NCBI GenBank assembly: GCA_000004985.1
Contig: GG738913.1
DNA length: 64,000 nucleotides
Direction: 5' to 3' (one strand)
Source: Naegleria gruberi
Taxonomy: Eukaryota
How positions within the stretch are numbered: the stretch's first letter is position 1; every line of letters starts with the position of its first letter. Both the position numbers and the translations under genes were made by a program. The notes beneath the pieces are model-generated. The model was not told the origin of the DNA. It saw only the letters and a program-made list of their open reading frames with translations, and searched no databases. Below, one piece after another: positions 14,738 to 54,709 of the stretch.

Positions 14738-14774
14738 ATATGAATTGTAAATGGTGATACATTTATCCAAATAA

Positions 14775-18175: not shown

Positions 18176-18952
18176 TTACCTTTTTTTTCGTAAAATCTTT
18201 TTTCGTGGGATATCTTCATCTTCCTCCTCAATTGCATTGAGGCTCATAATTTCCGAATTTATTGGTGTATTGTTGGATAAAGTTGTTGTTTTTTCACGTG
18301 TTTTTCTCTTCTTTCCGAAACCTTGCTCTCGTTCAAAATCAAGTAAATTATCGATGACTGTTTTATCAATTACCAGTGCATTGACATTAGCATCTGCTTC
18401 CGACTTGGTTTTTTGTTCATTGATTTGAATCATTTGAGAAAGCCTGGACAATAACTGTTCTGCATTCTGAGATATTGCATTGTCTTTCTTAAGCAACCCA
18501 TCATATGTTCTCTTTGCATTAGATATTCTACAGTCAGGCATTAGTTGAAAGTAACTGTTTCTGAGAGGGCAATAGTATTTGCCTTGTTCTGGAAAGAATG
18601 TAACTTTGAATTGAAAGGGAATTGACTTGTTAAAAGTTTCGTTCCAGTGTTTCTCGTGTTTCGTATAACTATTAGCCAGTGTTATATTGGGATCAGTTGC
18701 TGAGCTGTTTGTGATAGATTTGGTTCTTTCTGCTTGTTTTGGCCTTTCAAGAAACATTTCTATTGCAAATTGTTTTCCCGTAGTGTCACAAATGGTTTTA
18801 ATAATGTTTGTTGAGCCAACACATTTTCTCAACAATGCAATGTTTACAATATCCATCCTAATAAAATCTTGCATGAGCTTATCACAGGTTTCGAGTTCGA
18901 ATCCTTGTTCAATCATGAATTGATGCACATCACCTAAACCTTTATAATCCAT
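18176..18952 (-). CDS. hypothetical protein (258 aa) with basic C-terminal NLS-like tail
   Basis: ATG at 18950-18952. Non-repetitive N-terminal domain. C-terminal KKRKTREK...RKKILRKKR. Confidence 0.5.
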   Translation of the reverse strand: MDYKGLGDVHQFMIEQGFELETCDKLMQDFIRMDIVNIALLRKCVGSTNIIKTICDTTGKQFAIEMFLERPKQAERTKSITNSSATDPNITLANSYTKHEKHWNETFNKSIPFQFKVTFFPEQGKYYCPLRNSYFQLMPDCRISNAKRTYDGLLKKDNAISQNAEQLLSRLSQMIQINEQKTKSEADANVNALVIDKTVIDNLLDFEREQGFGKKRKTREKTTTLSNNTPINSEIMSLNAIEEEDEDIPRKKILRKKR

Positions 18953-19046
18953 TTGTTTTGTTTTTTTTGTTTATTTTCTTCGTAATCCGTAATCCGATTT
19001 TAAATTTTGGGAATTAAAACATTGTTAAACATTTAGTTCAACTTTA

Positions 19047-23431: not shown

Positions 23432-25801
23432 ATGTCCATCAACAAGATTTTCACACACAATTTGGGTTTCCCAAGAATTGGAGCTCGTCGTGAATTGAAA
23501 CAAGCTTTGGAATCCTACTGGTCATGTAAAATTGATTTGAATGCATTGGAATTAGTCGGTACTCAATTGAGAAAGCAACATTGGGAACAACAATTACAAG
23601 CTGGTCAATTGGATTTAATTCCAGTTGGTGATTTTGCTTGGTATGATCAAGTTTTGGAATGGACAACAACTATTGGATGTATTCCAAAACGTCATCAATC
23701 TGATTCTGCTCAAGATCAACCTTTCCACTTGGATACTTTGTTTAGAATGGCACGTGGTAGAGCTCCAACTGGTCAACCAGCAGCTGCTTGTGAAATGACC
23801 AAGTGGTTTGATACTAATTATCACTTCATCACTCCAGAAATCAAATTGAATCAAGAATTTGCTCTTTCTCGTACTTTCCTCTTTGAGCAAGTTAAGGAAG
23901 CTGAACAAGTTTTGGGAATTGATCGTGTCAAGCCAGTTATTATTGGACCATTGACTTGGTTGTACTTGGCAAAGGGTGAGGAATTTGTTGGTTCTCTTGA
24001 TTCTAAGAAATTGACTCTTTTGGAAAAGTTGTTACCAGTTTACAATCAAGTTTTACAACAATTTAGTCAACTTGGTGTTAAATGGACTCAAATTGATGAA
24101 CCTGTTCTCTGTTTGGATTTGAATGATGAATGGAGACAAGCTTTCCAAACTTTCTATCAACAATTGAATCAATCCAAGAAGCTTAACATTTTGATTGCTA
24201 CCTATTTTGGAAATTTGTTGGACAACTTGAAAACTTTGGTCAATTTGCCAGTCGAAGCCATTCACATTGATGCTGTTCGTGCTCCACAACAACTTGCACC
24301 TGTATTGGAATCTCTCAAAAATTCCTCAAAGATTTTGTCAGTTGGCTTAATTGACGGAAGAAACATTTGGAGAAGTGATTTGGATGCTTGCATTGAAACT
24401 ATTCAAAAAGTTATCATTGGAGAATTCAAATTTGATGCTTCTCGTTTGTGGCTTTCTCCTTCCTGTTCCCTTTTACATGTTCCTTTCGATTTGAAATACG
24501 AAACTAAAATCGATGCAGAATTGAAGAGCTGGTTGAGTTTTGCTGTTCAAAAGCTGGAAGAGTTATCTTTGTTGGGTTATGCAGCCCTTCTTAAAGATGG
24601 ATGCGAAGGTTCAATTCCTTCCAATATCTCTTCTCTTCTCGCCACTCAAAGATCTGCAATCGAATCTAGAAGAAACTCTGTTAGAATCCACAATCCACAA
24701 GTCAAGTCCAGAATGAATGAATCCATCTCAACAGACAGATCACATCCATTCGATGATAGAAAGAAGGCTCAACAATCCAAATTCCATCTCCCAAAGCTTT
24801 TCCCAACCACCACCATTGGATCTTTCCCACAAACTCAAGAAATTCGTTCCATTCGTTTGAAATACAAGAATGGAACTGTTTCACGTGAATTATACGAAAA
24901 GTTCATGAAGGAAGAAATTGAGAAAGTTGTTCGTCTTCAAGAGGAAATTGGTTTGGATGTTTTGGTTCACGGAGAACCTGAAAGAAATGACATGGTTGAG
25001 TATTTTGGTGAATTGATGAATGGTTATGCATTCACTGAGAATGGTTGGACTCAATCATTTGGTAGCAGATGTGTTAAGCCACCTGTTATCTTTGGAGATA
25101 TTTCACTTGATAAGCCAATGACAGTTGAATGGTCTTCATATGCTCAATCTTTGACTGATAAGCCAATGAAGGGTATGTTAACTGGTCCAGTTACTATTTT
25201 GAACTGGAGTTTCGTCAGAGATGATCAACCAAGAAGTGAAACTTGTAAGCAATTGGCTTTGGTTTTAAGAGATGAAGTGCTCAACTTGGAAAAGGCAGGA
25301 ATTAAGATTATTCAAATTGATGAACCAGCTGTAAGAGAAGGTTTGCCATTGAGAAAATCTGACTGGAATACCTATTTGAAATGGGCAGTTGACTGCTTCA
25401 AGTTGACAACATCAGGTGTTGAAATTGATACTCAAATTCACACTCACATGTGCTATTCTGAATTCAATGACATTATTGACTCAATTGGTGCAATGGATGC
25501 TGACGTGATTAGTATTGAAACTTCTAGATCTAATATGGAATTATTACAAGCTTTTGAAGATTTCAAATATCCAAATGATATTGGTCCAGGTGTTTATGAT
25601 ATTCACTCTCCAAATGTTCCAAATGTTGAATGGATGGTCAAGTTGATCAAGAATGCTATTGAAAGAATTCCAAAGGAAAATATTTGGATAAATCCTGATT
25701 GTGGTTTGAAGACTCGTGGATATCAAGAAGTTAAGCAAGCTTTAATTGCTATGGTCCAAGCAGCTCAACAATTGAGAACTGAATTTGAAACTTGTCAATA
25801 A
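23432..25801 (+). CDS. metE: cobalamin-independent methionine synthase (5-methyltetrahydropteroyltriglutamate-homocysteine S-methyltransferase, MetE)
   Basis: MSINKIFTHNLGFPRIGARRELK start. Both MetE halves are present, with the C-terminal Zn site (HxC...E...C: IHTHMCYSEF...DCGLKTR). 789 aa in a single exon. Confidence 0.95.
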   Translation: MSINKIFTHNLGFPRIGARRELKQALESYWSCKIDLNALELVGTQLRKQHWEQQLQAGQLDLIPVGDFAWYDQVLEWTTTIGCIPKRHQSDSAQDQPFHLDTLFRMARGRAPTGQPAAACEMTKWFDTNYHFITPEIKLNQEFALSRTFLFEQVKEAEQVLGIDRVKPVIIGPLTWLYLAKGEEFVGSLDSKKLTLLEKLLPVYNQVLQQFSQLGVKWTQIDEPVLCLDLNDEWRQAFQTFYQQLNQSKKLNILIATYFGNLLDNLKTLVNLPVEAIHIDAVRAPQQLAPVLESLKNSSKILSVGLIDGRNIWRSDLDACIETIQKVIIGEFKFDASRLWLSPSCSLLHVPFDLKYETKIDAELKSWLSFAVQKLEELSLLGYAALLKDGCEGSIPSNISSLLATQRSAIESRRNSVRIHNPQVKSRMNESISTDRSHPFDDRKKAQQSKFHLPKLFPTTTIGSFPQTQEIRSIRLKYKNGTVSRELYEKFMKEEIEKVVRLQEEIGLDVLVHGEPERNDMVEYFGELMNGYAFTENGWTQSFGSRCVKPPVIFGDISLDKPMTVEWSSYAQSLTDKPMKGMLTGPVTILNWSFVRDDQPRSETCKQLALVLRDEVLNLEKAGIKIIQIDEPAVREGLPLRKSDWNTYLKWAVDCFKLTTSGVEIDTQIHTHMCYSEFNDIIDSIGAMDADVISIETSRSNMELLQAFEDFKYPNDIGPGVYDIHSPNVPNVEWMVKLIKNAIERIPKENIWINPDCGLKTRGYQEVKQALIAMVQAAQQLRTEFETCQ

Positions 25802-32915: not shown

Positions 32916-32992
32916 TTTAGTTTCGTATGTATAAAACTAAACTTTGAGTTTACAAAGATTAACAGAAACTACCTTTGGAACTGTCAAAAAAA

Positions 32993-34669
32993 ATGTCGTC
33001 AACAATCAACAGCTTGATAATTGCGCTCACTTTCGTCTTGCTGTTAACTAATCTTGTCGAATGCACCATTAAAAAATCATTTTCACAAGATTTAACACCA
33101 ACTCTCCTAAATCCTCTCCGTGGTTTCGCCAGCTATGAAGATTCGTATAAAACCAACAAGTTTCCACAATCTTTAGAATATCGTTATTTTTCCATGAAGG
33201 AATTAATGAACGGAACACAAAGTTTTACATTTTCAGCAACTTTGGAACCATACTTGAATAATGTCAAGTCAAGAAAGAGACAAGCCATCTTTCGTATATA
33301 TCTTGATTATCCGAATTGTTGTCCTGATGGTCAATATAATACAGGAGTGCCAGATTTTCTATTGACAGGTGCTAATCCAGTTACATTTACATCTTATCCT
33401 GATTATGGTGGTGGTAAATCACCTGATTATTCGAATGAAAGATTAGTTTCGTCCATTGAACAATTAATTGCTGAACTTGCAAGAAAATATGATGGAGACA
33501 ATAGAATTGCATATGTTCAAGTTGGAATTTTAGGATATTGGGGAGAATTCCACACTTATCCAAATACTACATTGATGGCTCCATTGGCCACAAGACTCCG
33601 AGTATTGTCCGCATTTTACAATAATTTCAATATTACAAAATTATTAGTTTCACAAGATTCAATGCAATACTTTTGTCCACCACTTGCTGGAACGACTAAG
33701 AATGCAGGATGTGATGTTTCGGTTACTTCAGCTCCGTATCCAACAGTTTCGTATCCATCTATTGGATTCCACGATGATGCATTTGCGGATTCAACTTATT
33801 CAGCAACCAGTGGTAAAGATTATTACTTTTACAATAGATTACAATCTAGAATTCCAGATATTAATTCATTCTTGACTGCTTCAAATGGAGGTAAGGGAGG
33901 AGGAGTGATGGGTGGTGAATTATATCCATCCTATCAATCGAAAATATTTAAAACAACTTGGACAGGTCAGGATTTCTCACAATGTGTTAAAAAGACCAAT
34001 GCTACATGGTTGTTGAATGATTATGTATTTTCTACTTTGGCTAATTCACCAACTACTGAATGGTATGCTGCAAGAAATGCTTCATTAATGTTGGGTTATG
34101 CATTTACATTGAGAAATGTGGAAATGACAAGTATCACAAGTACTTCATTGACTTTGACATTTGGAATGGAAAATATTGGAAGTGCACCATTCCCATATTT
34201 GGATATTAATTTGGCTGTTTATTTGAAAAATGCAACAACTAAAGCATTGATTGCTTCTAATGAAGCTACTTCAATTTATCAATTGACTCCTGCAAGTGGT
34301 TCACAAAATATTAAGGTAAATTTAAAGTGGTCAACTCCAATTACAACAAGCCCATATGTTTATGTGAATTTGAAGAGTAAGCAAGTTCCATCAACCATCC
34401 CAATTGCATTTGCTGTGAGTGGTGCTCCAACAGATGGTTCAGATTTTTTAGTCATCTCAACTGTTGAGCAAATTTCAACTAATGGAACAACTCCTACCCC
34501 ATCTCCAACACCATCACCACAATCATCTGTCAAGACAAGCTCTAGTACTGGAAATAATGGTGGAATTAAAACAGGAAACTCTACTAGAACAGTTTCAGAA
34601 TCCTCCTTGAATAGTTATGTTTCATCTTGGATCATATTTGCCATTTCTTTAATTTATCTGATTTATTAA
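32993..34669 (+). CDS. secreted, GPI-anchored putative glycoside-hydrolase-like protein with Ser/Thr/Pro-rich stalk
   Basis: ATG at 32993 (the ORF track starts at a TTG at 32975). Signal peptide MSSTINSLIIALTFVLLLTNLVEC. Conserved blocks RIYLDYPN and GILGYWGEFHTYP. TPTPSPTPSP linker and hydrophobic C-terminus WIIFAISLIYLIY. Confidence 0.65.
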   Translation: MSSTINSLIIALTFVLLLTNLVECTIKKSFSQDLTPTLLNPLRGFASYEDSYKTNKFPQSLEYRYFSMKELMNGTQSFTFSATLEPYLNNVKSRKRQAIFRIYLDYPNCCPDGQYNTGVPDFLLTGANPVTFTSYPDYGGGKSPDYSNERLVSSIEQLIAELARKYDGDNRIAYVQVGILGYWGEFHTYPNTTLMAPLATRLRVLSAFYNNFNITKLLVSQDSMQYFCPPLAGTTKNAGCDVSVTSAPYPTVSYPSIGFHDDAFADSTYSATSGKDYYFYNRLQSRIPDINSFLTASNGGKGGGVMGGELYPSYQSKIFKTTWTGQDFSQCVKKTNATWLLNDYVFSTLANSPTTEWYAARNASLMLGYAFTLRNVEMTSITSTSLTLTFGMENIGSAPFPYLDINLAVYLKNATTKALIASNEATSIYQLTPASGSQNIKVNLKWSTPITTSPYVYVNLKSKQVPSTIPIAFAVSGAPTDGSDFLVISTVEQISTNGTTPTPSPTPSPQSSVKTSSSTGNNGGIKTGNSTRTVSESSLNSYVSSWIIFAISLIYLIY

Positions 34670-34693: not shown

Positions 34694-37600
34694 TTATTTG
34701 AATAAGCGAACTAGTTGATAGATTATGAAAATAACCAACATAGCATGGAGAAGGAAATGCACAATCATTGATTTGCTTATCAATGATGACTGCTTTCGTT
34801 CTACAGATTCGAATTGGACGTGTAAAATTCTCATACTTGAAGCCATCAATCCAGCAAATGGAATCCAACTTGGTGCCATGAATGGATATCTTTCTTTCAC
34901 GCCACCAATTTGTTGTCTTTCCTCCATTTGGTATTGCTCTGAAACTAGCTTTGCCTTTCTGTGAAGGGAATGCACAAATGGTTCAGCATCGACAACAAAG
35001 GATTTGAATGGACCTCCCTTATTGAGAGATTTCACAGAGCTTGGTGTGAAGAAATACGGAGCAAAGCCTGACATTTCAAAAAGAATATTACTACCTGGTA
35101 GTTTCTTTTCCAACATTTCGAATATTTGAACAAGTTGTGACTTTTCAAAGTAGAGGAATAGACCTTCTGCAATTACCAAAACTGGAATTGACTCACCAAA
35201 TGATTTTCTTATGAAAGCAAGATCTGAAAATGTTGATTCTTCTAGAATAGATCCACTTTTACATTCGTATAGTGGTTGTTTCGTATTGTCATTATTGTTA
35301 ACAATATTAAAAACTTGTCTTCTCAATTCAATGACATTTGGCAAATCAATATCAATCCAATGCACCTTCTCATTCATTCCAAATAATCTTTCATATCTAG
35401 AACACAATCCACATCCCAAATTAACAATCATTACCTTTTCATGCTTAGCCAAACTCTTACTCACAAATTCTTGTGATTTCCTATCCAAGACAATAGTTCT
35501 CCCAACAATATTAGTTCTGGTAATTCTATCATTCTGAACATCAACAGAGAGATCTTCTGGTAAGTTTTGGAAGATTTTCACAGCAATTGGATCATATAAA
35601 ATTCCATCGCTTTCAAGAGATTCGAGAGCTCTGGAAACGAGTGGAATGTAGAGAGTTCTTTCGAGAGGTGTGAGGACAGAGTTCTTATCTTGAGCAATGT
35701 CTACGTCAAAAGGAGTTGGATTATGTGATGATTGTTGTGGAGAGCCAAGAATGGAATGTGAAATAAGATTCGAATAATGTTTGTCAAGTTGATGTCCACA
35801 ATTCTTAACAGTAATAATATTCAATCCATTTCCTGCAAACTTATTCCAGTTGTTAATTGTATTTCCTGTTACTAATTTATCAAATTCGCCTCTGAGAGCA
35901 ATAACTGGACAGTCAACTTGGTATTTTCCAAAAATGTCATCGTCATAACAATGATATTTCAATAAAAAGTCAAATTGGTGTTTGAAAAGTGGAATTTCCA
36001 TCAAATCTCTAATCTTCTTTGCCTTTTCATCCAAGTTCTCAATTCCTTCTGTTACATTAGGGAACAAGTCAAGATCGACAATTCCATAAATGATCGATTG
36101 ATCTCCCAAAGTTTTAAATTTCACATAAGAATCACCATGAAGCGAATTTCCAGGAGCATTTCCACTAACAATCAATTTTACAGGTTTCTTATTGAACTTG
36201 AATTGAATAAATCTTGTAAATTCAAGAGCAACCAAAGCACCCATGCTGTGTCCATAGATTGTAACCGTATTGGAATTAAATAGTTGATGGACACAATCCC
36301 AAACTTGCATGAAATGAGCAGTCCAATCAGAATTATTTCTCAAATAATCCAAATTAATCACATAAATGGAAAATTCTTCAAGATTTAAATCTCTAAAATC
36401 ATGAACTGTTCCACCAAGTGCTGGAAAACAGAGTAAAACATTCTCTGATGATCTTTCTTGGATAGTTTCTAATAACAAGTGCTTTTCTAATGAATTGGTT
36501 TGATTTGGACTATTAGATTGTTGTGTTAATTGTTGATTGGATGATTTTCCAGAATTGGAAATCATTTCAACAAGAGTAGAAACCGAAACTCCAGATAAGA
36601 GAGTCGAAACTGTAATACTTGATGAAAATTCTCTTGATAGAATATTTCTTATTTCTACACTCATGAGAGAATCAAGACCATAGTCAACAAGTGGTTTCTC
36701 CAGTTGAATTTCACTTTCGTCCATTCCAAAAACTTTGGATACAATATCTGAAACCTTTCTAACAATTCCATCAACGTTAGAATCTGTAGTTGTTGATTTT
36801 CCTTCAATATTTGATTCCTTTCTTTGACGACCAAATGTTACATGAGGTGAAAGTGAATCCTCAGGCATTTCAAATCCAAAGAAGGTCATTGCAGGAGGAA
36901 GATCCATCTCGTGTTCAATCAAATATTCGAAATGATCAAGTAAATCATGAACATGCATAGCTCCAACCCAGAAATATTCATCAACTTCTGCCTTAGTTGC
37001 ATATCCAGCTCCTGTAATCAAACTTAGACCTAAAGATTGTCCAGCCAATCCACAACTTCTTCTATAGCTACACAAAGATTCTAAGAAATAATTTCCACTA
37101 TTATAGTTTGATTGACCGAATGCTCCAACCAAAGAACTGAAAGAGCTCAACATTAAAAAAGTGGATAGATTGCAATTGAGCTTGATTGAACATTGGTGAA
37201 GGTTGAAACCTCCGAGAATCTTTGGTCTGGCAACAGTTTCGTACTTTTCTTTTGTCATCTTATTTGCAGCACAATCGGATAAAACCATTGCTGAATGGAC
37301 AATTCCTGTAATTGGGAATTTTTGATGGATTTCTTGCATTGTTTGATAAAGAGTTGAGTAATTGCAAATATCAGTAATGTAAACATCAATAGATGCATTA
37401 GGGTTATTCAGCATAATCTTGTCAATGATCAATTTTTCAGATTTGTTTGGCATTCTTCTTGTAAGAAGGGCAATGTTTGAGACTTTCATCTTTTCAACAA
37501 GCCATTCGCACATCTTTAATCCAATTCCACCCAATCCTCCACTAATAACCCAACAACCGTTATTCAATATCTTCTTTTGAGATGTCAAAGAATTATAAAT

Positions 37601-40600
37601 AACATTGGAATAAAAGTGAACAAATCTTCCACTTTCAGAATAAACAATTTCATCATGAGTATAAACAGATTCAAGGACATCATCAACAATTTCACCAATT
37701 GAGTTTTCTGAACATTTAGGTTGCATATCAATAACCTTTAACTTCTTTTGGAATATCTCAGTTTGAATTGATCTCAAACATCCAACAATAGAAGATTGAG
37801 AAATGTTACATTCCTGATTGTAACCAAAAACTGAACTAGTTAGAGCAACGAATTTACATCTGCCAGTATTGAACTTGAGTATCTTACAAATTGAGTACAT
37901 AGATTCCACACAATTGGAAACTGTTTCAAACTCGAAAGAGCTTAAAGAAAGTGGCCAACCGAAAATAATTCCACAGATATTCAAAGTTTGATTGAATATT
38001 GATTCGAAATGTTCAAAATCTGCAGGATTAATAACGAATCCAGAATCAAGTTGTTGGAATTTTTCACCTTGAATAATTTTGACAACTTTTACACCTCTAG
38101 ATTTCAATTCTTCACACAATAAATTTTCCTTTTGTGTTTCAGAAGAGAAGAACAACCATCTCTCAACATTTTTCTCTTTCTTCTTTGCTATAATGTAATT
38201 TGCAGTACCAATTGGCAACATGACATTTGAAGGGAAATCACAATCCAATAAAACTTGTTCCCACTCATTTCCTGATAGCAAAGCAGATTGCTTTCTGAAG
38301 GAATCCTTAAAATACCACCATCCCTTCAAAGTACCAACGAAAAAGTGTAAAAATTGAGCTCCAAGAGGATCAGACTCAACTAGGACTAATTGACCATTGG
38401 AAACCAACAAGCTTGAAATGAGTGAAAAGACGGATTTCAAATCTTGAGTAGCATGAACAACATTAGCAGCGATTACCAAATCAAACGAATCCTTTTCAAT
38501 GAATTCTGAAGAAACAAATGGCTTTTCAATATCTAATAAAGAAAATTCCATAAAATATTCGAATTGTGCAAACTTTTCCTTTGCCTTCACCAAAAACAAT
38601 GGTGAAATGTCTGTGAAAACATACTTCACATCTATATAATCTCTCAATGAATCAAGAATTGGTAAAATTTGTTTGGTTGTTCCTCCAAGTCCAGCTCCAA
38701 TTTCCAAAATTCTCAAAGTCTTCTTTTTACCATTCTTTGGAATGGAGTTCAAAATAAAATCAAACAATGGTTTAGTTTGATGAGAAACTTCATCATAATA
38801 ATCATTCAATACATGTTCTTTTCTTGAAAATAGGACAGAAACAGGATCTGCCTCACCAGTTAATAATTGCTTCATGTGAATTAAACTATTTTCCACCAAA
38901 TCGATCAGATTGGAATAAAGATCAATTCTTGGAAATTCTCTCAAGGATTTGATAATATTAAATCTATTAGGAAGATCACTAACTACTGTATAAGTATCTG
39001 AATCATATTGGACAAGATTCATTTGTAAAGCCAACTCAATAGTCAATTGAGCAAGTCTCTTCAAATGTTCTGGTTGAATCCTAGAATTCAAAACAGAAAG
39101 CTCGATAGTAGAACTTTCACATAACTCTTGGAATACATTCAAACAATATTCAACACAAACCTTGGTAACAAATCTATTAAGAGATTCGTGTTCGTTTGAG
39201 TATTCATTGAGTTTGAAATTGAGAATAAACTCTTGCAATGATTCCATAGAAGGAAGAATAGATTTAGAATAGATTGGTTGTGGTGCAAAGTTTGATGATA
39301 CAATAGAAGTTTCTTGAAGTTTCTTTTCTTTGGTTTCCAAAGGTGAAACTTTGAAACCATTGAAAGAAATAAATGGCTCATTAGATTCTCCCAAAACTTG
39401 TAAATCACAAGTAATTTCTTTTGTTTGAGCATTCTTCGAATATTTAACACATCTGGTGATGGTGTGTTTCGAATTGTTTGGTTTTCTATGTGGGATGATT
39501 GTAATTTCGTCTGTGGAAATTGGAAGATAGGTTGTATCCTCTGGCATTGAACAAATCATCATTTGGAAACATGAATCAAGCAATGCAGGATGCCATGTAC
39601 AATATCTTTCGTCATTTTCCAAAGCTTTTGGATGGGAAATTTGTGCCATCAAAACTTCTCTTGTTTCGTCATGTCCAACTTGGCTGTACAAATCCAATCC
39701 TTGGAAACAAGGTCCATAATTGAGGCCACATTTGGACAGATTGAAATAGATATTCTCCTTATGAATGTTTTGTGTTTTTTCATCAAGATTTTCTGTGAAA
39801 TTTCTGAAAATATCAAAGGCTTTCAATTCTCTGTTTGTGAAATTGATGGAATCACCAGAATTAGAAGAATCTAGAGTTTTGAAAGAACCAAAGGCATGTA
39901 AAGTCCAATCACAAGGTAGCTTATTTGATAACTTGGAAGGATCTTTGGAAATTTCTGAATAATTAATAGATAACAAGTCAACCTTCTTTTTGCTGAAAAT
40001 TCTAAACTCATTAGCATACAAATTCAAATGAACTTGAACAATTCTAGGCTCTTGTTGTAAAATCATTGGATTTACCACTTTGAAATTGACTAGACGAAGC
40101 TCTTCAACATTCTTGGACGAGTTATCAAGAATTGCTGCAGAACTAATCTCAACGAAACCAGAATATGGGAAGAATACTTCATTTTCAATCTTGTGATCTC
40201 TAATATACATTTGATCAGTGTTAGAACTAATATCAATAAGACTCTCATAGATAATATCTGGAGAATTTTCCATTGGATTGAATTTTCTGTTACCCAAAAG
40301 TGGATGATTAATAGTTTCGAATTGACCAATTCTCCATCTCAAAGATTCATAAGATTCTGACCAACAAGATTGTTTCTGGAAAGGATATTTAGGAATTCCA
40401 TCCAATATCTTACTATTCTCTCCATATCTATTAATTTGTTTCCAATCAAGTTTAGAATATCCATTCACAAACAATGAGGAGACAACTTGTAACAAACTCA
40501 TTTGTTCATCCTTCTTTCTAATCAATGTTGGAATTACAGAAATAGAATCTTCATTTCCTAATGAAGAAGACGAAATATCCTTAATGTATCCATTCAAAAC

Positions 40601-43184
40601 CGGATGGGAAGATATTTCAATAACATATTTGATTGAGTTTTTGTAAGTGTGAAAAATCTCTTCCATAGCTTGTGAAAACAAAACCTTCCCTCTGACATTA
40701 TTCCACCAATATTCTGGTGTTGACATTTCTTGGAGGTTTGACTTTCTTCCAGTGACAGTAGAGAAAACGGCTTGAATATTATCATTTGGTTTGGTTCCTC
40801 TTTCCTTTTTTGAGATTCTATTAGAAAGAACTTCTAATAACTCTTTCTTGATTACTTCCATATGGCTGGTATGGAATGCAGCTTCATTTCTCAAAAAGAC
40901 ACAGTTGACTCTTGAGTTTGGTTCATTTTCCACATACTTGGTGAGATCAAGTTGCAATTGTTTCAACACATGTTCTTCACCACCAACTACAACGGAGGAA
41001 TTACTATTTACAGATGCAATCTCAACAGTATTGTTAAATCCAAGAATATCCAAAATTGAGGCCAATTTGTCCAATCCTAAATTGATAGCCATCATTTTAC
41101 CTGTTTTAGAAAATTCTTTCAAGATGGTTGCACATTTGTTTTGCAATCTTGCTCTATGATAAATCAAGAATACAGCTTCCTCTAGAGTGAGGCATCCATG
41201 CACGTATGCAGCTGTCACTTCTCCAACTGAATGTCCAACAACAATTCGAGGAGTGACTCCATATGATTTCAATACTTCATAACAACCACATTGTACTGCA
41301 AAGATACATGGTTGAGCAATGTTGGTTGAGTAAATTCTGGTGTCCTTTTCTGTTCTTGTAGTCAACTCTTCTACAATTGACCACTTGTCATTGGTTGGCA
41401 TTATCTTTTGCATTTCTGAATCAATTCTTTCAACTGTGGCAGAGAAAACATTGTTGGTTTCCAATAATTGTCTTCCCATAGCAAACCATTGAGGTCCTTG
41501 TCCAGAGAAAACAAAGCAAATATCGGATTTTTCTTCTCTCTTGCTTGAGTTACCAATGCTAGTTGATTCATTAGATGAAAAATTGGAGGACAATTGGAGG
41601 AGCTTTTCAACGAGCTCATCTTTGTTGTTGTAAATGATAGAAGCTCTGTAGTCTCTGAATTGACTCTTCTTTTCACAATAGTTGAAAAGTAAATCATCTT
41701 GATTGCATTGAGCTGAAAACTCAGCAACGCTACTAGACATCATCTTGAGTGAGTATTCACTCTTGGCAGAAAGTGGAAGAATTCTAATACCTTCTGATAT
41801 GCTATTCTTTCTTTGATGTTCTAATTGCTCAACACTTTGCAAGATGCAATGAGCATTAGTACCACCCATACCAAAGGAATTAATTCCAATAATAACAGGA
41901 TTGATATTAGAAGGGATTTCTTCTTCTTGCATGACAACTCTAATTTGTTTCTTCTCAAACTCAATGTGAGGATTGAGTGTGCTCTCAGTGCAATGAATAC
42001 TCTTAGCTATCTTCCTATGTTTCATCATGAGAATAGCTTTGATAATACTTGCAATCCCACTTGTTGCCTCTGTGTGACCAATATTACTCTTGACAGAACC
42101 AATTGGTAACTTGTCAAGTTTGTGCTTTCTTCTTTCTCTTCCAAAGAATGAATCAAGAGCTTGAGTTTCAATCTTATCTCCAATAGTAGTTCCAGTTCCA
42201 TGACTTTCAACATAATAAACATGTTGTGGAGGAATGCCACTCTTGTTGTACACTTGTTCCAATAATTCAACTTGTCCTTCCAGAGAGGGCATTGTTATTC
42301 CACTCTTTCTTTCTCCATCGTGATTGACCCAAGTTGACATGATCAAAGCATGAACTCTTTCATGTTGTGAAGAATTCGCATGCTTGTATGTGTTGATGAT
42401 GAGATGATGAATCTAATTTCTTCAAAATTAATACAGCAACACCTTCAGATTTTCCATAACCATCAACATGTGAAGAGAAGGTTTTACATCTTCCATCTGG
42501 TGCTGCTGCTCCAATAAGCTTTTGAGATACAAATTCTTGTGGAATGTAGTTTAAATTAACTCCAGCAACAATGGCCATTTCGCATTCATCTCTCTGTAAA
42601 CTTTCACATGCACAATTGAGTGCTACCAAACTTCCTGAACACATGGTATCGAGAGTGAATGACGGGCCTCTCAAATCGAAATGATACGAAATCCTGGCAG
42701 AATTGTTAGCTGGTGAAGAGTTTATCAAACTGTACGAGTTGTAAGTTTGCATGTCATGCCAGCCTTTCATGGTGAGATAATCTTGGTTCATCACAGAACA
42801 AAACACACCAATGTTTCTTCCTCTGATTTCTTCCCATTTAATTCCAGCATCCTCCAAGGCAATGTAAACTTGTTGAAGAAGGAGACGATGTTGTGGATCC
42901 ATGGAGCATGCTTCCTTCTTGGAAATTTCAAAGAATTCAAAATCAAACTCATCTAATGGTTTCTCCAAGAAGTGAGCCCTGTTGTAGGTTTGCTTATTGT
43001 TGTGGAATCTTGATGATTGTCTTTCCTTTGGTATGGTTGAGCTGGTGTCACTACCGTCAAGAAGAACTTGCCAGAATGATTCAACATCCACTGCCTGTCC
43101 AGGGAACATACAACTCATTCCAATGATGCCCATTGGTGAGTTTTCAGCAGAGTTTGATGGAGTAGTAGAATTGATAGAAATCAT
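34694..43184 (-). CDS. iterative type I polyketide synthase, KS-AT-DH-cMT-KR-ACP-TE-(TcmP/LCM-type O-methyltransferase)-TM; KS domain frameshifted at ~42363..42390 (two ORFs 42360..43184 and 34694..42346)
   Basis: ATG at 43182-43184 (MISINS...IIGMSCMFPG). KS motifs TMCSGSLVAL, HGTGT and GGTNAH. AT GHSVGE. DH HPLLGNRKF. cMT LEIGAGLGGTT. KR GGLGGIGL. ACP GLDSLMSVE. TE GHSMGALVALEF. LCM/TcmP-family VNLGCGLCSRYERL. C-terminal helix IVHFLLHAMLVIFIIYQLV. No ER domain. Confidence 0.9.
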
Positions 43185-43536
43185 TTTCTTAATTACAAAG
43201 GTATAGAGTGTTGGTCTTTTTTCTTATAAATTAAAAAACAATAATCAAACACCAAACCATTTTAAATCATGAGTGGTCATTAGCAATTTGGAATCAGCAA
43301 TAACAACAATAATTCATTATTGTCTCATACTGCTAGATAAGTCACAAGAACTTGTTACTTTCCTTTTTAAATCTGCCGCTCTCAGCCAAGTCACAAGTTC
43401 AGCCATTATGAACTAGTTTTTTTCAATGGAGTAGTTCAACTAAGAGATTCAGAAGAGTTCGCATCACTGATACTGAAGTGTTTGTTAGTATAAAAGCTTC
43501 GGGAATCACTGATTGTGATAATACAATTCAATTGTG

Positions 43537-43573
43537 GGAGTTCGGATGTTGATGTTCTTGAGATACGAACTCC
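43537..43573. promoter_or_regulatory. perfect 8-bp inverted repeat (GGAGTTCG...CGAACTCC) with 21-nt loop in the PKS / oxidoreductase intergenic region
   Basis: Seen directly in the sequence. It lies between divergently oriented genes, and aagtcacaag direct repeats lie nearby (43331..43400). Confidence 0.3.
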
Positions 43574-43705
43574 TTGTGATGAAAAAGTGTTGATGATACT
43601 AATCACCCCGGTTCCAATAACAAGTTCTGAATGAGAGTCTGGTCAGTGATACGAGCCCTTTTTATTGGCATCTTGATATGGATTGGATAACATTAAAAAA
43701 TTATC

Positions 43706-45380
43706 ATGATTATCTACATACTTGTGGCTATTCCATTTCTGTTTCTTCTCTATGTTGGCTATCTATTGTGCAAGTTGTATGTATTCAACAGATATCCAAA
43801 GAATGTTTTTCTGGCGCCGCACTATCTAACAGAGAATGTTGTCCAAACCAAAAAGTTCAACAAGAATCCTTTCAAGAAAGAAAAACTTGCAGAGCATTAT
43901 GATGCAATCATTATTGGCTCAGGTGTTAGTGGCATTATTTGGGCAAGATGATAGGTCCAGAAAGTGAGCTGATGGATCTTCTCTGTGATAGAAAATTGAG
44001 ATGTTGTCCCTTGATGAGAACTTTGATAATCTGTCCATTATTAATTCTGCTACAAATGAAAAGTTGTTAGAAATAGAAATTCCTGAAGGTCAAGACAAGT
44101 TAATCAAAAAGCTCAAAGAAGTCTTTCCAGAAGAATCCAAAGCCATTGATGAGTATGTTGAGATATCGTTTCCACCAAAGTATGAAATTATTCCAGTTAT
44201 TATTTTAAAGTGTTTCCCATTCATATTTTCCAAATTATTCAAGTATCTAGTTGCACCAAAATTTATGAATTATGTCCATACTAGTATTGGTCAAGCTCTT
44301 GACAAATTGACGTCCAATCAGCTTCTTAAGAGTGCCATTTGCTATATTGGCATAGATTATGGTTCAAATCCAAAAGCAACTCCACTCTATGAGCATTCAA
44401 TGATTCACAATATTTTCAAGAATGGTGGTCACATTCCAAAGGAAGGAGCAGACGATATTGTCGAAAGTTTGATAAAGGTCATTAGAAAAGGAGGTGGAGA
44501 TGTGATGAGCAAGGCAAATGTTGCTTCAATCCACATCAATAAGGAAGGAAAATGTGGAGGAGTGTGCGTGTTAAAGAACAAGGACTCTATCATTATTGAA
44601 TCTCCGATTGTAATTTCATCTGCTGGAGTTTACAATACTTATTCAAAGCTCATTCCTCGTCCAATAAGAGAAAAACTTGGCTACAATCACTTCAAGTACA
44701 CGCCTTCATATTCTGTTCAGGCAACCTTCCTTGGCTATGATGGCACAATAGAAGAATTAGGATTAAAGTTCCAAAACTATTTCATCATGACTAACCCTGA
44801 TTTTGATGGTCAATTTACCAGATACATGGAAAGTGATGGAGATATTGACCCAAAGAATGGCATTGATATTCCAATCTTGATAGCCAATCTCAGACCTTAT
44901 AATAACAAGGTTTCAATGACTATCCTCAGCTTTGCCAATCATGCATGGTTTCAAGAGTGGAACCATCAACGAGTTGGACAACGTAGTGTTGACTATGAAG
45001 ACTTGAAGGAGAGAATTGCCAATCGAGCCCTCGAATTATTATACATGAAACATCCACAACTTGAAAATAGACACTCTGTAATGAGTACTTCCTCACCAAT
45101 TACATTTAATCATTATCTATCCAATAATTTTGGAGATTACATGGGTTTTAAGAGAGTGGTTGGTAATGATGATGGTGTATTCCGTTGGGGAAGGCCAATG
45201 TCCAATCTGGAGAATTTGTTTTTGGTTGGGCAGGATATCTTTGCAGGAGGTGTGCAGGGAGCAATGTTGAGTGCTTTAATTACATGTGGATGCGTGTTGA
45301 GGAGGAATTTGTTTGATGACTTGGCAAAGGCCGTTGAAGAGATGAAGAAGTGGAAGGCTTTGCTATTTTGTTTTAAATAA
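43706..45380 (+). CDS. RetSat/CrtISO-like FAD-dependent oxidoreductase (phytoene-desaturase family), apparently internally deleted (ORFs 43706..43951 and 44001..45380)
   Basis: N-terminus: TM helix plus NPFKKEKLAEHYDAIIIGSGVSG (FAD GxGxxG), collinear with RetSat residues ~1-80. The second ORF is collinear with RetSat residues ~150-end (LKSAICYIGIDYGSNPKATPLYEHSMIHNIFKNGGHIPKEGADDIV... and C-terminal LFLVGQDIFAGGVQGAMLSALITCGCVLRRNLFDDL). The ~70 residues expected between them (rest of the beta-alpha-beta FAD fold) have no coding space (only 49 nt). Confidence 0.65.
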
Positions 45381-46045
45381 CTTTTATTAATTATTTTTTT
45401 TAATTGGGAATCATATTCAAAACTATTCTTACGAGGTCTTCCTCTTGGTCGTTTAGGAAGACTCTTCTTTAATTCTTGTTCTTCCTTCATGGACTCTATT
45501 GTTGATATGAAGAATGTATTATTGTTACCTTTGGTACTTATGACGGTGTTGTTATTATTGGTATTTACAGGGGTGGTAGAAGAGGAGCTGCTAGTGGAGT
45601 AAGCAAGGATCGTCCTATGATTGTTATTATTATTAATATTTACAAATGATGATAAAGATTTTGGGGTTTGTTGCTTGCATTCTTCCATGATAGCAACATT
45701 GTTATTATTAGGAACAACATAATTATTGGATAAATTCAGTGGCTGATTCAATAGTGCCTTGTTTAGATGGTGATTGTTCATTGGCCAATTGTTGTTATCT
45801 TCATCATATGATGGAAGGAAGGAATCATCCACTGTGGGAGCATAATTCTCATGGTAAGGATTATTATTGGAGCTACTTAAAAGCAGATACAACAAGAATA
45901 GTGTCTGCTCGTTTGTGATATTGAAAGGTGAATGGTTTGGAAGCATTTGTTTTGTTACTGGTACCATAACTAATAACACATTATAATAGCCATTTACTAT
46001 GGTATGTGAACCCTGCATTCCTACTCTTCTGGAAATATATCTCAT
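45137..46045 (-). CDS. single-AT-hook protein, family member 3 (3' end uncertain: ORF runs antisense into the 3' end of the neighbouring gene)
   Basis: ATG at 46043-46045. TLFLLYLLL motif. STIESMKEEQELKKSLPKRPRGRPRKNSF at ~45428..45510. The other two family members terminate 23-27 codons after PRK, so the true stop or an intron probably lies near 45380-45420. Confidence 0.5.
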   Translation of the reverse strand: MRYISRRVGMQGSHTIVNGYYNVLLVMVPVTKQMLPNHSPFNITNEQTLFLLYLLLSSSNNNPYHENYAPTVDDSFLPSYDEDNNNWPMNNHHLNKALLNQPLNLSNNYVVPNNNNVAIMEECKQQTPKSLSSFVNINNNNNHRTILAYSTSSSSSTTPVNTNNNNTVISTKGNNNTFFISTIESMKEEQELKKSLPKRPRGRPRKNSFEYDSQLKKIINKSYLKQNSKAFHFFISSTAFAKSSNKFLLNTHPHVIKALNIAPCTPPAKISCPTKNKFSRLDIGLPQRNTPSSLPTTLLKPM

Positions 46046-51418: not shown

Positions 51419-54400
51419 TTAAGCCAAGTTAAGTTGTCCAATCAATACAATACAAATCAACACTAAATATACCAATGAAATTGCAGTTGCTGATGCTTCA
51501 GACACACGTTGACTTTTGGATGGTGTCACATTTTTGCTTCCAGAAGTTTTTGGAGTAGTGATACTCTTGCTTGGTTGAGGAATTGAGCCACCAGAAGAAG
51601 TGGATGGTGTTGGAGTAACTGTCTGTTCACACAAACCATTAACCAATGATTCTCCTTGAGAACAAGTTAAGGAAACTTTTCTAATTCTATTGTTCGAATC
51701 ATCTGAAATGTATAATTCACCTACTGAGCTCACTGCCAAACCTGTTGGAAAGTTCAATTGAGCACTTGTTGGTAAAGACCCATCTCCGCTCAATCCTGCA
51801 ATTCCATTTCCAGCACTTGTGCTAATAGTTCCATTGACATTCAATTTACGAATTCTATGGTTATACGAATCAGCAATGAACAAATCACCAGTTGAGCTAA
51901 CAACTAGGCCACTTGGATAATTCAATTGATAAAGTGATGCATTATTTCCTTCACCATTATATCCAGCTGTTCCATTTCCAGCAATTGTTGTAATTATTCC
52001 ATTCAATGAGACCTTACGAATTCTATGATTATTAGTGTCAGAAATCAGCAATTCTCCATTGGAATTGACTGCTACATAGCTTGGATTATTTAATGTGGCA
52101 CTTGTTGCAAGACCACCATCTCCACTAAAACCTGCAACTCCACTTCCAGCCACAGTGCTAATATCACCATTGGTTGCAATCTTTCTAATTCTATGATTAT
52201 TCGAATCAGCAATGAAAATTTCACCACTTTTTGAGCTAATTGCAAATGATTGAGAATTCAAATAAGAGTTAACTGCAGAAGAGCCATCGCCCAAACCACC
52301 AGCAACTGTACTAATCTTTCCACTAGAAAGTTTACGAATTCTTGAATTGAAAGAATCAATAATGAAAACGTCACCGTTCGAATTGGAAGAAACTCCACTT
52401 GGATAATTGAAACATGTACTTGTGGCTGCCAATCCATCACCATTGAAACCAATCGCTCCACTTCCAGCAATGGTTGAAATGTATCCATTCGCAGCTACCT
52501 TTCTAACTCGTTGATTGTATTGGTCAGAAATATAAATTTCTCCAGAGTTTCCAATAGAAATGCTGAATGGGAAATTGAGCTTGGCATTGGTAGCTAATCC
52601 ATTATCTCCACTGAATCCAGAAGTTCCAGTTCCTGCAACAGTTGTAATGATACCAGAGGATGAAGAAACCTTTCGAATTCTATGATTACCAGAATCGGCA
52701 ATATAAATATCATTATTAGTCAAATTGACTGCTACTGCAAATGGAACGAACAATTGAGCATTAATGGCCAACCCATTATCTCCGCTAAATGTTGCCTTAT
52801 ATGCAACTGTTCCATTACCAGCAATTGTTGAAATATAACCACTAGTAGAAACTTTACGAATTCTATTATTACGAGTATCGGTGAAAATCAATTCACCATT
52901 TGAATTCATTGCAATTCCATTTGGATAATGGATTTTGGCAGATATGGCCAGCCCACCATCTCCACTGAATCCAGATTCTCCACTTCCTGCCACAGTTGAA
53001 ATGATACCACCAGTTGAAATCTTTCTAATTCTGTGGTTTTCAGAATCGGAAAAGTAAATTTCACCACTCGAGCTCACTACCACTCCTTTTGGATTATTCA
53101 ATTTGGCACTTGTAGCAGAGGAGCCATCTCCACTGTAGCCACTTGTGCCAGTTCCAGCAATTGTTGTAATGTAACCATTCGAAAGTTTACGAATCTTGTG
53201 ATTGGAAGAATCTGAAAAGTAAGAGTCACCATTAGAAGAGATGAAAATAGAGTTTGGATTATGTAATCTTTCAGTGATTGCTAACCCATCGCCACTGTCA
53301 GCTCCAATAGCACCAGTTCCTGCTACAGCTGTCAAACTTGATTTGATTTTTGACAAATACGAACCAAGATACATGACATATACTTCATTATTATAATAAC
53401 TAACTGCAGAACCCAAAGGAGTTACTGAACTAAGAGTGGAAATTACATTAGTTGACAAATCAACTCTTCTAACTTTTCCATTATCAGTAAATAAAAGATT
53501 ATTTCCATAAATAATAGGATTTCCATTTGGAGAAACAAATGATTTGCTTGCTTGAACATCCTCTCCAAAACTTGAGGTACCAGCAAATGTTGAAATCACC
53601 CCACTTGCAGAAATCTTTCTAATTCTATGATTATACGAATCTGAAATGAAAATTTCACCTACAGAGTTGACCACAATTCCAGAAGGCAACCACAATTGAG
53701 CATTAACGGCCAAACCACCATCTCCACTCAATCCAACAGTTCCTGTTCCTGCAATTGTAATAATGGTACCATTTGTCAAAATCTTTCTAATACGATTGTT
53801 AACAGAATCTGAAATGAAAATTTCACCATTCGAATTGACTGAAATTCCACTTGGATAATTCAATTGAGCATTCTTTGCCAAGATGGAATCTCCATTAAAA
53901 CCAGCAGTTCCAGTTCCTGCAACTGTAGTGACAATACCACTATTCGAAATCTTTCTAATTCGATGATTTCTTGAATCTGCTACAAATAGTTCACCATTCG
54001 AATAGAATGCTGCTCTTGGTGCATTGAATTTGGCATTTGTGGCCTGTCCATTATCACCACTGTATCCAGCAGCTCCAGTTCCTGCAATAGTTGTGATATT
54101 TCCAATGGAGGAAACCTTTCGAATAACATTATTAGAAGTATCGACAATAATAACTTCACCACTTGAGGAATTAAGAGCTAAACCGTATGGAGAGTTTAAA
54201 AGCGCATTCGTAGCAAGACCCCCATCACCACTATAACCATAGGATGAGGCAGTTCCAGCAATGGTTGAGATTTTTCCATTTGTAGAAACCTTTCGAATAA
54301 CATGATTGGAGGTATCAGCAATGAAAGTTTCTCCCAAAGAATTAACAATTACACCATAAGGAAAGTTAATTTCGCTCTGTGTAGCCAATGCACCATCTCC

Positions 54401-54709
54401 ACTAAATGAAGAAGTACCAACGCCTGCAAAAGTTGAAACATCACTAGACGAAACCTTTCTAATACGCTGATTAAACGTATCAGCAATAAGAATTTCACTA
54501 TTCAAGCCTAATGCTATCCCATACGGATATCTCAAGAGAGCATTCCCTGTCATTCCATCACCAATTTTACTTCCACCTCCAATCAATGTTGAAATTTTGA
54601 CAGTTGGCAAGGAAGTTGAATGGACATGTGGAAAATTCATCATCACAACGATGAATGTAATGAGCAACCATATGGTAACGAGAATTTTCAATGGTTTGCG
54701 TGAAATCAT
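51419..54709 (-). CDS. secreted, GPI-anchored NHL-repeat protein (>=14 NHL repeats)
   Basis: ATG at 54707-54709 and a signal peptide. A reiterated ~50-aa unit ...G.GDG..A..A.LN.P.G.A..S.G...I.D..NHRIRK(V/I)S.NG.I.T.AG... (NHL/YD-type beta-propeller blades). S/T/P-rich stalk and hydrophobic tail LVYLVLICIVLIGQLNLA. Confidence 0.85.
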   Translation of the reverse strand: MISRKPLKILVTIWLLITFIVVMMNFPHVHSTSLPTVKISTLIGGGSKIGDGMTGNALLRYPYGIALGLNSEILIADTFNQRIRKVSSSDVSTFAGVGTSSFSGDGALATQSEINFPYGVIVNSLGETFIADTSNHVIRKVSTNGKISTIAGTASSYGYSGDGGLATNALLNSPYGLALNSSSGEVIIVDTSNNVIRKVSSIGNITTIAGTGAAGYSGDNGQATNAKFNAPRAAFYSNGELFVADSRNHRIRKISNSGIVTTVAGTGTAGFNGDSILAKNAQLNYPSGISVNSNGEIFISDSVNNRIRKILTNGTIITIAGTGTVGLSGDGGLAVNAQLWLPSGIVVNSVGEIFISDSYNHRIRKISASGVISTFAGTSSFGEDVQASKSFVSPNGNPIIYGNNLLFTDNGKVRRVDLSTNVISTLSSVTPLGSAVSYYNNEVYVMYLGSYLSKIKSSLTAVAGTGAIGADSGDGLAITERLHNPNSIFISSNGDSYFSDSSNHKIRKLSNGYITTIAGTGTSGYSGDGSSATSAKLNNPKGVVVSSSGEIYFSDSENHRIRKISTGGIISTVAGSGESGFSGDGGLAISAKIHYPNGIAMNSNGELIFTDTRNNRIRKVSTSGYISTIAGNGTVAYKATFSGDNGLAINAQLFVPFAVAVNLTNNDIYIADSGNHRIRKVSSSSGIITTVAGTGTSGFSGDNGLATNAKLNFPFSISIGNSGEIYISDQYNQRVRKVAANGYISTIAGSGAIGFNGDGLAATSTCFNYPSGVSSNSNGDVFIIDSFNSRIRKLSSGKISTVAGGLGDGSSAVNSYLNSQSFAISSKSGEIFIADSNNHRIRKIATNGDISTVAGSGVAGFSGDGGLATSATLNNPSYVAVNSNGELLISDTNNHRIRKVSLNGIITTIAGNGTAGYNGEGNNASLYQLNYPSGLVVSSTGDLFIADSYNHRIRKLNVNGTISTSAGNGIAGLSGDGSLPTSAQLNFPTGLAVSSVGELYISDDSNNRIRKVSLTCSQGESLVNGLCEQTVTPTPSTSSGGSIPQPSKSITTPKTSGSKNVTPSKSQRVSEASATAISLVYLVLICIVLIGQLNLA

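Follow-up and report, generated by a model that had tools for sequence, protein, structure and literature searches.

A reducing polyketide synthase of Naegleria with a thioesterase, an LCM/TcmP-type methyltransferase and a hydrophobic tail on one chain

Introduction

Tailoring domains placed behind the acyl carrier protein (ACP) are, to our knowledge, rare in reducing polyketide synthases (PKSs). Here we describe a PKS gene of Naegleria gruberi, on the minus strand (43184..34694) of a 64,000-nt stretch of contig GG738913.1 (the window, to which coordinates refer unless another locus is named), in which the thioesterase (TE) is followed on the same chain by a methyltransferase of the LCM/TcmP family and a C-terminal hydrophobic helix. 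Among known enzymes, the strobilurin synthase StPKS1 of Strobilurus is a highly reducing PKS (HR-PKS) with a partial hydrolase after the ACP and a terminal methyltransferase (PMC6158276). It resembles the Naegleria PKS in being an iterative HR-PKS that lacks a working enoylreductase (ER) and in which a hydrolase-like segment and then a methyltransferase follow the ACP. However, the StPKS1 hydrolase retains only the Ser and is succeeded by ∼300 residues of undefined function, its terminal domain, a CurJ-like C-methyltransferase, stands in for an internal C-methyltransferase (cMT) that is inactive, and it has neither an LCM domain nor a membrane tail (PMC6158276). In the Naegleria PKS, in contrast, the TE triad (Ser-Asp-His) is complete, the internal cMT is intact and the terminal methyltransferase is of the LCM type; this triad together with the PF04072 domain rules out an assignment to the StPKS1-type HR-PKSs.

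The nearest named proteins of comparable domain order are cyanobacterial single-module synthases (∼2,800 aa; Nostoc, Scytonema, Tolypothrix and others) of ketosynthase (KS)-acyltransferase (AT)-dehydratase (DH)-cMT-ER-ketoreductase (KR)-ACP-TE organization, which are 28-30% identical over ∼62% of the long Naegleria open reading frame (ORF) but contain an ER and end at the TE, with no LCM domain and no tail. After the eukaryotic clade described below, the best whole-length matches were the metagenome contigs P0154, P0157 and P0158 (∼30-31% identity) and multimodular actinobacterial and myxobacterial PKSs. Dictyostelid PKSs, including Steely, are likewise large type I enzymes of the fatty acid synthase (FAS)-like kind from a soil amoeba, and optional methylation, reduction and release domains have been described for them (PMC3188802). 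An earlier reading of the window made from its sequence alone (the sequence-only reading) had proposed these as the frame of comparison, including the Steely type. That frame does not suit the Naegleria PKS: the host is a heterolobosean, the Pfam scan of its ORFs gave no match to the chalcone-synthase (type III PKS) family, which Steely carries as a domain, and no named dictyostelid protein was among the 120 best matches.

The PF04072/IPR007213 family to which the terminal domain belongs includes yeast PPM1, human LCMT1, TYW4/PPM2, Streptomyces TcmP and the mycobacterial members ML2640c and Rv0731c. As far as is known, its characterised members are carboxyl methyltransferases: PPM1 and LCMT1 act on the C-terminal leucine of PP2A, TYW4 on the α-carboxyl of a wybutosine precursor, and TcmP on the C-9 carboxyl of tetracenomycin E. 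The Naegleria domain shares with this family the class I fold with an N-terminal helical cap and the motifs NLGxG..R, D.D.P and (A/S)E(G/C)L, and family members are its best matches in the PDB by both sequence and structure. It differs in its position behind the TE at the end of a 2,800-residue PKS, in a Cys within motif I, in a C-terminal extension and in a transmembrane (TM)-type tail. PKSs of Naegleria have previously been counted (16 in the pangenome) and not described, a Willaertia PKS with KS, AT, TE, ER and KR domains has been noted, and searches of the open-access PMC and bioRxiv literature found no report of an LCM/TcmP-type domain in a PKS or of a Naegleria PKS architecture.

Results and Discussion

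Domain architecture of the PKS

The gene is covered by two minus-strand ORFs, 42360..43184 (274 aa, ATG at 43184) and 34694..42346 (2550 aa). A Pfam scan of both gave the order KS-AT-DH-cMT-KR-ACP-TE without an ER, then an LCM/TcmP methyltransferase, and a hydrophobic helix follows. The N-terminal half of the KS lies in the first frame (42363..43184; PF00109, 224 bits, profile positions 3-250 of 252), with the active-site Cys in DTMCSGS and the strand GVAVLILKKL ahead of a stop codon at 42360-42362, whereas the C-terminal half, with the His motifs HGTGT and NIGHTEA, lies in the second (41990..42412; PF02801, 122 bits). The 2550-aa ORF then matches KAsynt_C_assoc, the KS-AT linker, and continues with the AT (GHSVGE, AFHTSHM; 40466..41515, aa 278-627; PF00698, 169 bits), the DH (HKIENEVFFP; 39326..40306, aa 681-1007; PF21089 and PF14765), the cMT (LEIGAGLGG; 38297..38767, aa 1194-1350; PF08242, 56 bits), the KR (GGLGGIG, SNYNSGN; 37016..37558, aa 1597-1777; PF08659, 147 bits) and the ACP (GLDSLMS; 36518..36781, aa 1856-1943; PF00550 and PF23297), all on the minus strand. 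Thus, the KS Cys-His-His residues, the AT GHSxG motif and the ACP DSL motif expected of a type I reducing PKS are encoded for one chain, as judged from the Pfam matches and orthologue alignments, and the KS reading frame is interrupted in the N. gruberi sequence, where an assembly error is possible.

DH and KR without a match to an ER family in either ORF constitute a partial reducing set, and the interval between cMT and KR (246 residues) is too short to hold an ER, in agreement with the absence of this domain proposed by the sequence-only reading. ER-less enzymes also occur among some fungal HR-PKSs. The ORFs given in that reading and the motifs that it quoted (GHSMGALVALEF, VNLGCGLCSRYERL and IVHFLLHAMLVIFIIYQLV) were recovered as described, all in a single frame. 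Its description of the domain order as non-canonical has to be narrowed: from KS to TE the order is the usual one of reducing FAS-like PKSs, and only the TE-LCM-TM end is unusual. We conclude that the KS-to-TE part is of a known kind and that what is new is a terminus of TE, LCM domain and tail on one chain.

The entire long ORF (100%) aligned with orthologues in Naegleria lovaniensis (C9374_005736, 2882 aa) and Naegleria fowleri (FDP41_005497, 2907 aa) at 55-56% identity, and both proteins carry PF04072 and the whole architecture, tail included. Residues conserved in them include the KS Cys and both KS His motifs, the AT GHSVGE, the DH His motif, the cMT GAGLGG (in a domain that is 71% identical to theirs), the KR GGLGGIG and Tyr motif, the ACP DSL, the Ser, Asp and His of the TE, and the methyltransferase motifs NLGCGLCSR, D.DL and AEGLF.

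The methyltransferase continues the TE reading frame and is hidden in the public gene model

The methyltransferase (NLGCGLCSR, WIDIDLP, VIAEGLFLYF) occupies 34811..35692 on the minus strand. Its PF04072 match (aa 2237-2411; profile positions 6-185 of 187) scored 38.3 bits when the whole ORF was scanned and 42.9 bits for the C-terminal piece alone, against a gathering cutoff of 22.3, and a linker of ∼35 residues without a stop codon connects it to the TE in the N. gruberi frame. Relative to the orthologues, the methyltransferase core is 52% identical and the C-terminal extension 69%, and across species the domain is as well conserved as the TE, DH and ACP.

The public protein for this locus (XP_002670671.1/D2VZ44, a 2614-aa "predicted protein" of N. 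gruberi) gave no PF04072 match when scanned with Pfam. In an exhaustive protein search, a query consisting of the methyltransferase and tail matched XP_002670671.1 at 99% identity over the first 176 query residues only, and tblastn together with a global alignment showed that the window translation departs from the public protein solely at three modelled mini-introns of 52, 36 and 56 nt, all on the minus strand and each of which takes out residues kept in the orthologues. The 52-nt GT..AG segment (42383..42434) lies in the KS and removes the conserved VLILKK strand. The 36-nt segment (39125..39160) is in frame and deletes VCVEYCLNVFQE, at which the orthologues keep VCV(Q/E)YCL(S/N)VF(R/Q)E. 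The 56-nt segment (35259..35314) is inside the methyltransferase, where it shifts the frame so that the annotated protein stops 20 residues later; if the sequence is instead read through, it remains 52-69% identical to the orthologues for 230 further residues. Because the orthologues conserve the sequence that is excised or left out of frame, we conclude that the 36-nt and 56-nt introns are artefacts. The 52-nt intron is likewise spurious, and surveys of domains based on the annotated proteome will miss the LCM domain that these three introns conceal.

With the 56-nt intron contradicted by orthologue identity, the sequence-only proposal that an LCM/TcmP methyltransferase follows the TE in frame is borne out by the PF04072 match, by the predicted fold described below and by the same arrangement in N. 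fowleri and N. lovaniensis. A different interpretation is that the long ORF artificially fuses a PKS that ends at the TE to a separate gene for a tail-anchored methyltransferase. In its favor, P0003 is a free-standing homologue of 356 aa that has the same tail, and the public model breaks in this region. However, the short linker contains no stop in N. gruberi, and the TE-LCM frame is equally unbroken in N. fowleri, N. lovaniensis and a metagenomic PKS (P0004), which makes an artefactual fusion extremely improbable.

The terminal domain has the fold and conserved residues of the LCM family

An AlphaFold (AF2) model of the methyltransferase and tail, built from 45 sequences, had a pLDDT of 87.6 and a pTM of 0.88; it has the seven strands of a class I fold and, behind them, a long helix at the C-terminus (residues 323-347 of the model). 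When this model was compared with the PDB using Foldseek, the top 23 matches were all TYW4, PPM1, LCMT1, ML2640c or Rv0731c (E 6e-12 to 3e-8), at sequence identities of 12-18% in the structural alignments, and a profile search of PDB sequences also retrieved PPM1 and LCMT1.

One departure from the family is in motif I, where the Asp of GxGxD is replaced by Cys (GCGLCSR) in all five members of the clade. A Cys is also found at this position in ∼20 of 173 bacterial relatives, especially the closest ones, a pattern suggesting that it is a trait of the subfamily rather than a sign of decay. This substitution, together with a score short of the TIGR00027 cutoff, could mean that the LCM-like domain is catalytically dead and acts as a scaffold, structural or membrane-proximal, that links the PKS to its anchor. 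We consider this very unlikely, since the Cys variant is also found in free-standing bacterial enzymes, the family-invariant residues R81, G111, R118, S164, A191 and G193 and the nearly invariant D86, R115, D132 and E192 are all present, the domain is conserved as well as the TE, DH and ACP, and the model is a complete seven-stranded class I fold.

The thioesterase resembles type II enzymes

The TE (35747..36436, minus strand) has its Ser in GHSMG, its Asp in GEFDKLV and its His in NCGHQL. Its PF00975 match (aa 1971-2067) is a marginal pass at 27.1 bits against a gathering cutoff of 26.4, and the corresponding TE of the metagenomic PKS P0004 scored 44.4 bits. Alignment placed the Ser (GHSMG or GHSIG) and Asp in register in all four sequences, P0004 included. 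The His (CGH) is in register in the three Naegleria proteins, which thereby have the complete Ser-Asp-His triad, and the candidate His of P0004 (APHVF) lies a few residues upstream, out of register. The closest solved relatives are the type II TEs 5ugz, RedJ (3qmv/3qmw), YbtT and RifR. Free-standing type II TEs such as RedJ, YbtT and RifR are hydrolytic, and a TE of hydrolytic type, which would release a free acid, agrees with the substrate needed by a carboxyl methyltransferase.

A hydrophobic helix ends the protein

The helix IVHFLLHAMLVIFIIYQLV (34709..34765, minus strand; residues 2528-2546 of 2550) ends four residues before the stop codon at 34694-34696. No other 19-mer of the protein is as hydrophobic (Kyte-Doolittle mean 2.31; the next best scores 1.67), so that a lone hydrophobic helix lies within the last ∼30 residues and no other segment is a TM candidate, as is expected of a tail anchor. 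The terminal helix noticed in the sequence-only reading is therefore confirmed by hydropathy, by the helix at residues 323-347 of the model and by its conservation in the orthologues: the tails of N. fowleri and N. lovaniensis have the same position and character (means 2.7-2.9), and across the five clade members the corresponding tails all lie between 2.4 and 2.9. In comparison, only 2 of 132 bacterial methyltransferase homologues have a C-terminus above 1.6. We interpret the helix as a putative tail anchor through which the PKS may be inserted into a membrane.

Relatives that share the terminus

Members of this group other than the Naegleria proteins were few. The exhaustive protein search for further TE-LCM-TM proteins yielded only P0003, P0004 and a bacterial protein, P0024; a profile word search yielded P0003 and proteins of ∼270 aa, of which the few named ones are bacterial; and a scan of metagenome DNA yielded only relatives at 25-32% identity. 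P0003, free-standing at 356 aa, has the same LCM domain and hydrophobic tail at 36% identity. P0024 is a KS...KR-LCM protein in which Pfam detected no TE. Distant relatives of the methyltransferase are mostly ∼270 aa long, with a few longer ones among which are tandem duplications. Together, these sequences suggest that an LCM domain with a membrane tail defines a small eukaryotic clade whose fusion to a PKS has occurred in at least two lineages, Naegleria and one other.

That other lineage is represented by P0004 (JGI 3300062347, Ga0606064_0013), a 3528-aa PKS on a eukaryote-like metagenome contig of 155 kb and 35% GC with SMC and ricin-lectin genes as neighbors. Its architecture (10001-20587 of its locus) is KS-AT-DH-ER-KR-ACP-TE-LCM, followed by hydrophobic segments and a cytochrome P450. 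It shares with the Naegleria PKS the TE-LCM arrangement, the motif GCGLC(T/S)R, 39% identity in the methyltransferase, a hydrophobic segment after that domain and divergently oriented CrtI-like genes. It differs in having an ER, a degenerate cMT motif (LEIGEGIIG), the fused P450 after the hydrophobic segment and two tandem flavoenzyme genes. The fusion of a P450 behind TE-LCM gives "Rosetta stone" support to the idea that tailoring enzymes join this terminus.

One bacterial genome has three PF04072 paralogues in tandem (7044-9725 of its locus), among them a GLCTR-type protein closely related to the Naegleria domain, and their context is not that of a PKS.

A divergent flavoenzyme gene accompanies the PKS

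Upstream of the PKS and in the opposite orientation lies a gene for a disrupted FAD oxidoreductase that resembles CrtI and carotenoid isomerase (43706..45380, plus strand), which was delimited by tblastn with the N. fowleri and N. lovaniensis proteins and by a five-way alignment. The intact enzymes of the other genomes are 606-626 aa long, with an N-terminal hydrophobic segment and a GSGxSG dinucleotide-binding fold, and their best match is to the carotenoid isomerase/CrtI family, below threshold. The two genes stand head to head in four genomes (N. gruberi, N. fowleri, N. lovaniensis and the metagenomic eukaryote, whose contig has two tandem flavoenzyme copies upstream of the PKS at 5630-9485 of its locus). 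In the three Naegleria species they share a divergent intergenic region of ∼410-520 nt (43185..43705 in N. gruberi; ∼410-420 nt in N. fowleri and N. lovaniensis). When the ±10 kb around the N. fowleri PKS were compared with the N. gruberi window, no similarity was found besides this gene pair. Retention of the pair without wider synteny supports a functional, conserved two-gene cluster. A Tc5/DDE-type transposase gene directly follows the N. lovaniensis PKS (18764-20074 of its locus) and is not there in N. fowleri.

The partner gene is not intact in N. gruberi, and its ORF gave no Pfam match at E≤1e-3. The N-terminal TM segment and GSGVSG are found in 43706-43936 and the remainder of the protein in 43995-45380, whereas 43937-43994 stands in place of 45 residues of the Rossmann core (...LSCGSVLSKAGKKVLILEQHKIAGG...) that comprise the second strand and the acidic residue of the FAD-binding unit. 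Two frame changes are needed to pass this interval, and the residual homology runs through three different frames within its 58 nt. Thus, the idea from the sequence-only reading that an adjoining FAD oxidoreductase makes this a small biosynthetic locus is strengthened by the divergent pair in four genomes. That reading overlooked the break in the KS frame and the loss of the FAD-binding core from the N. gruberi copy of the partner.

A proposed hydrolyse-then-esterify mechanism

Our preferred account, which we hold with slightly better than even confidence, is that this protein is a single-module, iterative-type reducing PKS present throughout the genus Naegleria, in which the TE hydrolyses the product and the LCM domain methyl-esterifies it at a membrane, with the flavoenzyme as partner. 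The PKS would build a C-methylated chain, unsaturated or partly reduced, on its ACP, and the type II-like TE would hydrolyse the thioester to a free carboxylic acid. The adjoining LCM-type domain, using S-adenosylmethionine (SAM), would then convert the carboxylate to a methyl ester. The tail would hold the megasynthase on the membrane so that the hydrophobic ester could pass into the bilayer, where the N-terminally anchored flavoenzyme might saturate, desaturate or isomerise a double bond in it. By analogy with characterised family members, carboxyl O-methylation is the putative activity of the LCM domain. The present analysis shows the architecture, the fold, the conserved motifs and tail and the retained gene pair; hydrolytic release, methylation of the carboxyl, insertion into a membrane and the part played by the flavoenzyme are inferred. 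A methyl-ester product, as suggested in the sequence-only reading, fits both the chemistry of the LCM family and a hydrolytic TE, and stands as a proposal.

Several points weigh against this account. The product of every member of this PKS group is putative, and the TE only just exceeds its Pfam cutoff. The motif-I Asp is absent from the entire clade, and the domain falls short of the TIGR00027 (NCBIfam) cutoff (38.2 versus 93.55 bits). Bacterial GLCTR-type homologues are not found in a PKS or lipid context and so lend no functional support, and the methyltransferase could act instead on a hydroxyl, an enol or an ACP-bound intermediate. In addition, the N. gruberi locus appears recently disabled, as detailed below, and the pathway may make nothing in this strain.

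The possible use of another substrate deserves separate comment. An active LCM domain might O-methylate a β-hydroxyl or enol, or methylate the carboxyl of malonyl-ACP in the manner of BioC to provide a methyl-ester starter unit. Cis-acting O-methyltransferase domains that modify ACP-bound intermediates are known in modular PKSs, and the bacterial KS...KR-LCM protein without a detected TE indicates that an LCM domain can occur in a PKS with no hydrolase before it. On the other hand, the known cis O-methyltransferase domains belong to another, PF08242-like family, PPM1 and LCMT1 methylate a free carboxylate according to the names of their PDB entries, TYW4 and TcmP also act on a carboxylate, and in four of four eukaryotic PKSs the LCM domain directly follows a TE of hydrolytic type. 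We therefore think that a substrate other than the released acid is unlikely.

A TE, a cis carboxyl-type methyltransferase and an anchor would form a compact release-and-protect terminus that could serve the engineering of methyl esters. A more specific version of the mechanism is that a self-releasing, self-esterifying megasynthase tethered to a membrane provides Naegleria species, including the pathogen N. fowleri, with a methyl-branched polyene or partly reduced fatty-acid methyl ester, and that a flavoenzyme resembling CrtI and RetSat processes a polyketide that mimics an isoprenoid. We offer this as speculation and regard it as doubtful; if true, it would represent a previously unknown lipid or signal pathway of heteroloboseans, and no earlier PKS would have combined a tail anchor with a terminus of the "hydrolyse-then-methyl-esterify" kind. 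We know of no polyketide from N. fowleri, and the retention of the architecture and of the flavoenzyme partner in that species marks a candidate metabolite common to the genus. Conservation in N. fowleri and the hidden mis-annotation raise the significance of the locus, and the possibly inactive N. gruberi copy lowers it.

Apparent lesions in the N. gruberi genes

In N. gruberi the KS is split between two reading frames. Protein and DNA alignments with the orthologues located the break within 42383..42434 (minus strand), where 31 extra nt (∼42385-42418) cause a +1 shift. Between fixed anchors, the KS measures 166 nt in N. gruberi and 135 nt in both orthologues, the difference being ten codons plus one nt. 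The inserted sequence is of low complexity and specific to N. gruberi, and as a consequence the first frame stops after 274 aa.

An intron that joins the KS halves was considered and rejected: the sole GT..AG candidate is the 52-nt segment of the public model, which has a weak donor (GTATTA) and would delete VLILKK from GVAVLILKK, a strand that every relative keeps and that the Pfam KS profile covers. The genuine introns of the orthologues (81 and 129 nt, starting with GTAAGT and GTACGT) lie ∼50 codons downstream of the frame break. N. fowleri and N. lovaniensis share this KS intron in EAHQ|TGT (129 nt, ∼11006-11134, and 81 nt, ∼10985-11065, of their respective loci), and it is not present in N. 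gruberi, which points to an intron gain or loss during the history of the genus. At this motif the N. gruberi KS has HGTGT and the orthologues read HQTGT.

One explanation for these lesions is that the N. gruberi locus consists of two recent pseudogenes, such that the genus does have this architecture while no polyketide is made from this particular copy. The KS insertion, the absence of any GT..AG bridge that spares a conserved strand, and the loss of the 45 FAD-binding β-α-β residues from the partner flavoenzyme with two frame changes within 58 nt all argue for it. However, the PKS frame of 2550 codons is still open at 34% GC, and lineage-specific changes at conserved sites are no more frequent than expected from the sister lineage (142 versus ∼150 for the PKS and 28 versus ∼40 for the flavoenzyme). 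These relative-rate counts rule out prolonged decay as a pseudogene. Together with the open frame, they indicate that the lesions are recent, allele-specific or artefactual; inactivation would have to be very recent, be confined to a single allele or reflect an assembly error. No second N. gruberi assembly in which to check the frameshift was found by searches with the 274-aa product or with XP_002670671.1. We judge the chances that this copy is a pair of recent pseudogenes to be even, and given its apparent lesions the N. gruberi reference strain may be the wrong place to seek the product of the proposed TE-LCM pathway.

Neighboring genes in the window

A 564-aa ORF with weak matches to DUF4832 and DUF4874 (32975-34669, plus strand) converges on the PKS and ends 25 nt from its stop codon; a gene of this kind was not found beside the orthologous PKSs. 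On the other side, a 302-aa Asn-rich ORF (45137-46045, minus strand) with an AT-hook-like KRPRGRPRK sequence and no Pfam match overlaps the 3′ end of the flavoenzyme gene in antisense. MetE, the cobalamin-independent methionine synthase, is encoded ∼9 kb from the PKS (23432-25801, plus strand; both Pfam domains at E ∼1e-162). Although MetE feeds the SAM cycle, its gene probably has no connection with the cluster. Farther away, 51419-54709 (minus strand) encodes a 1096-aa protein rich in NHL and teneurin-NHL repeats.

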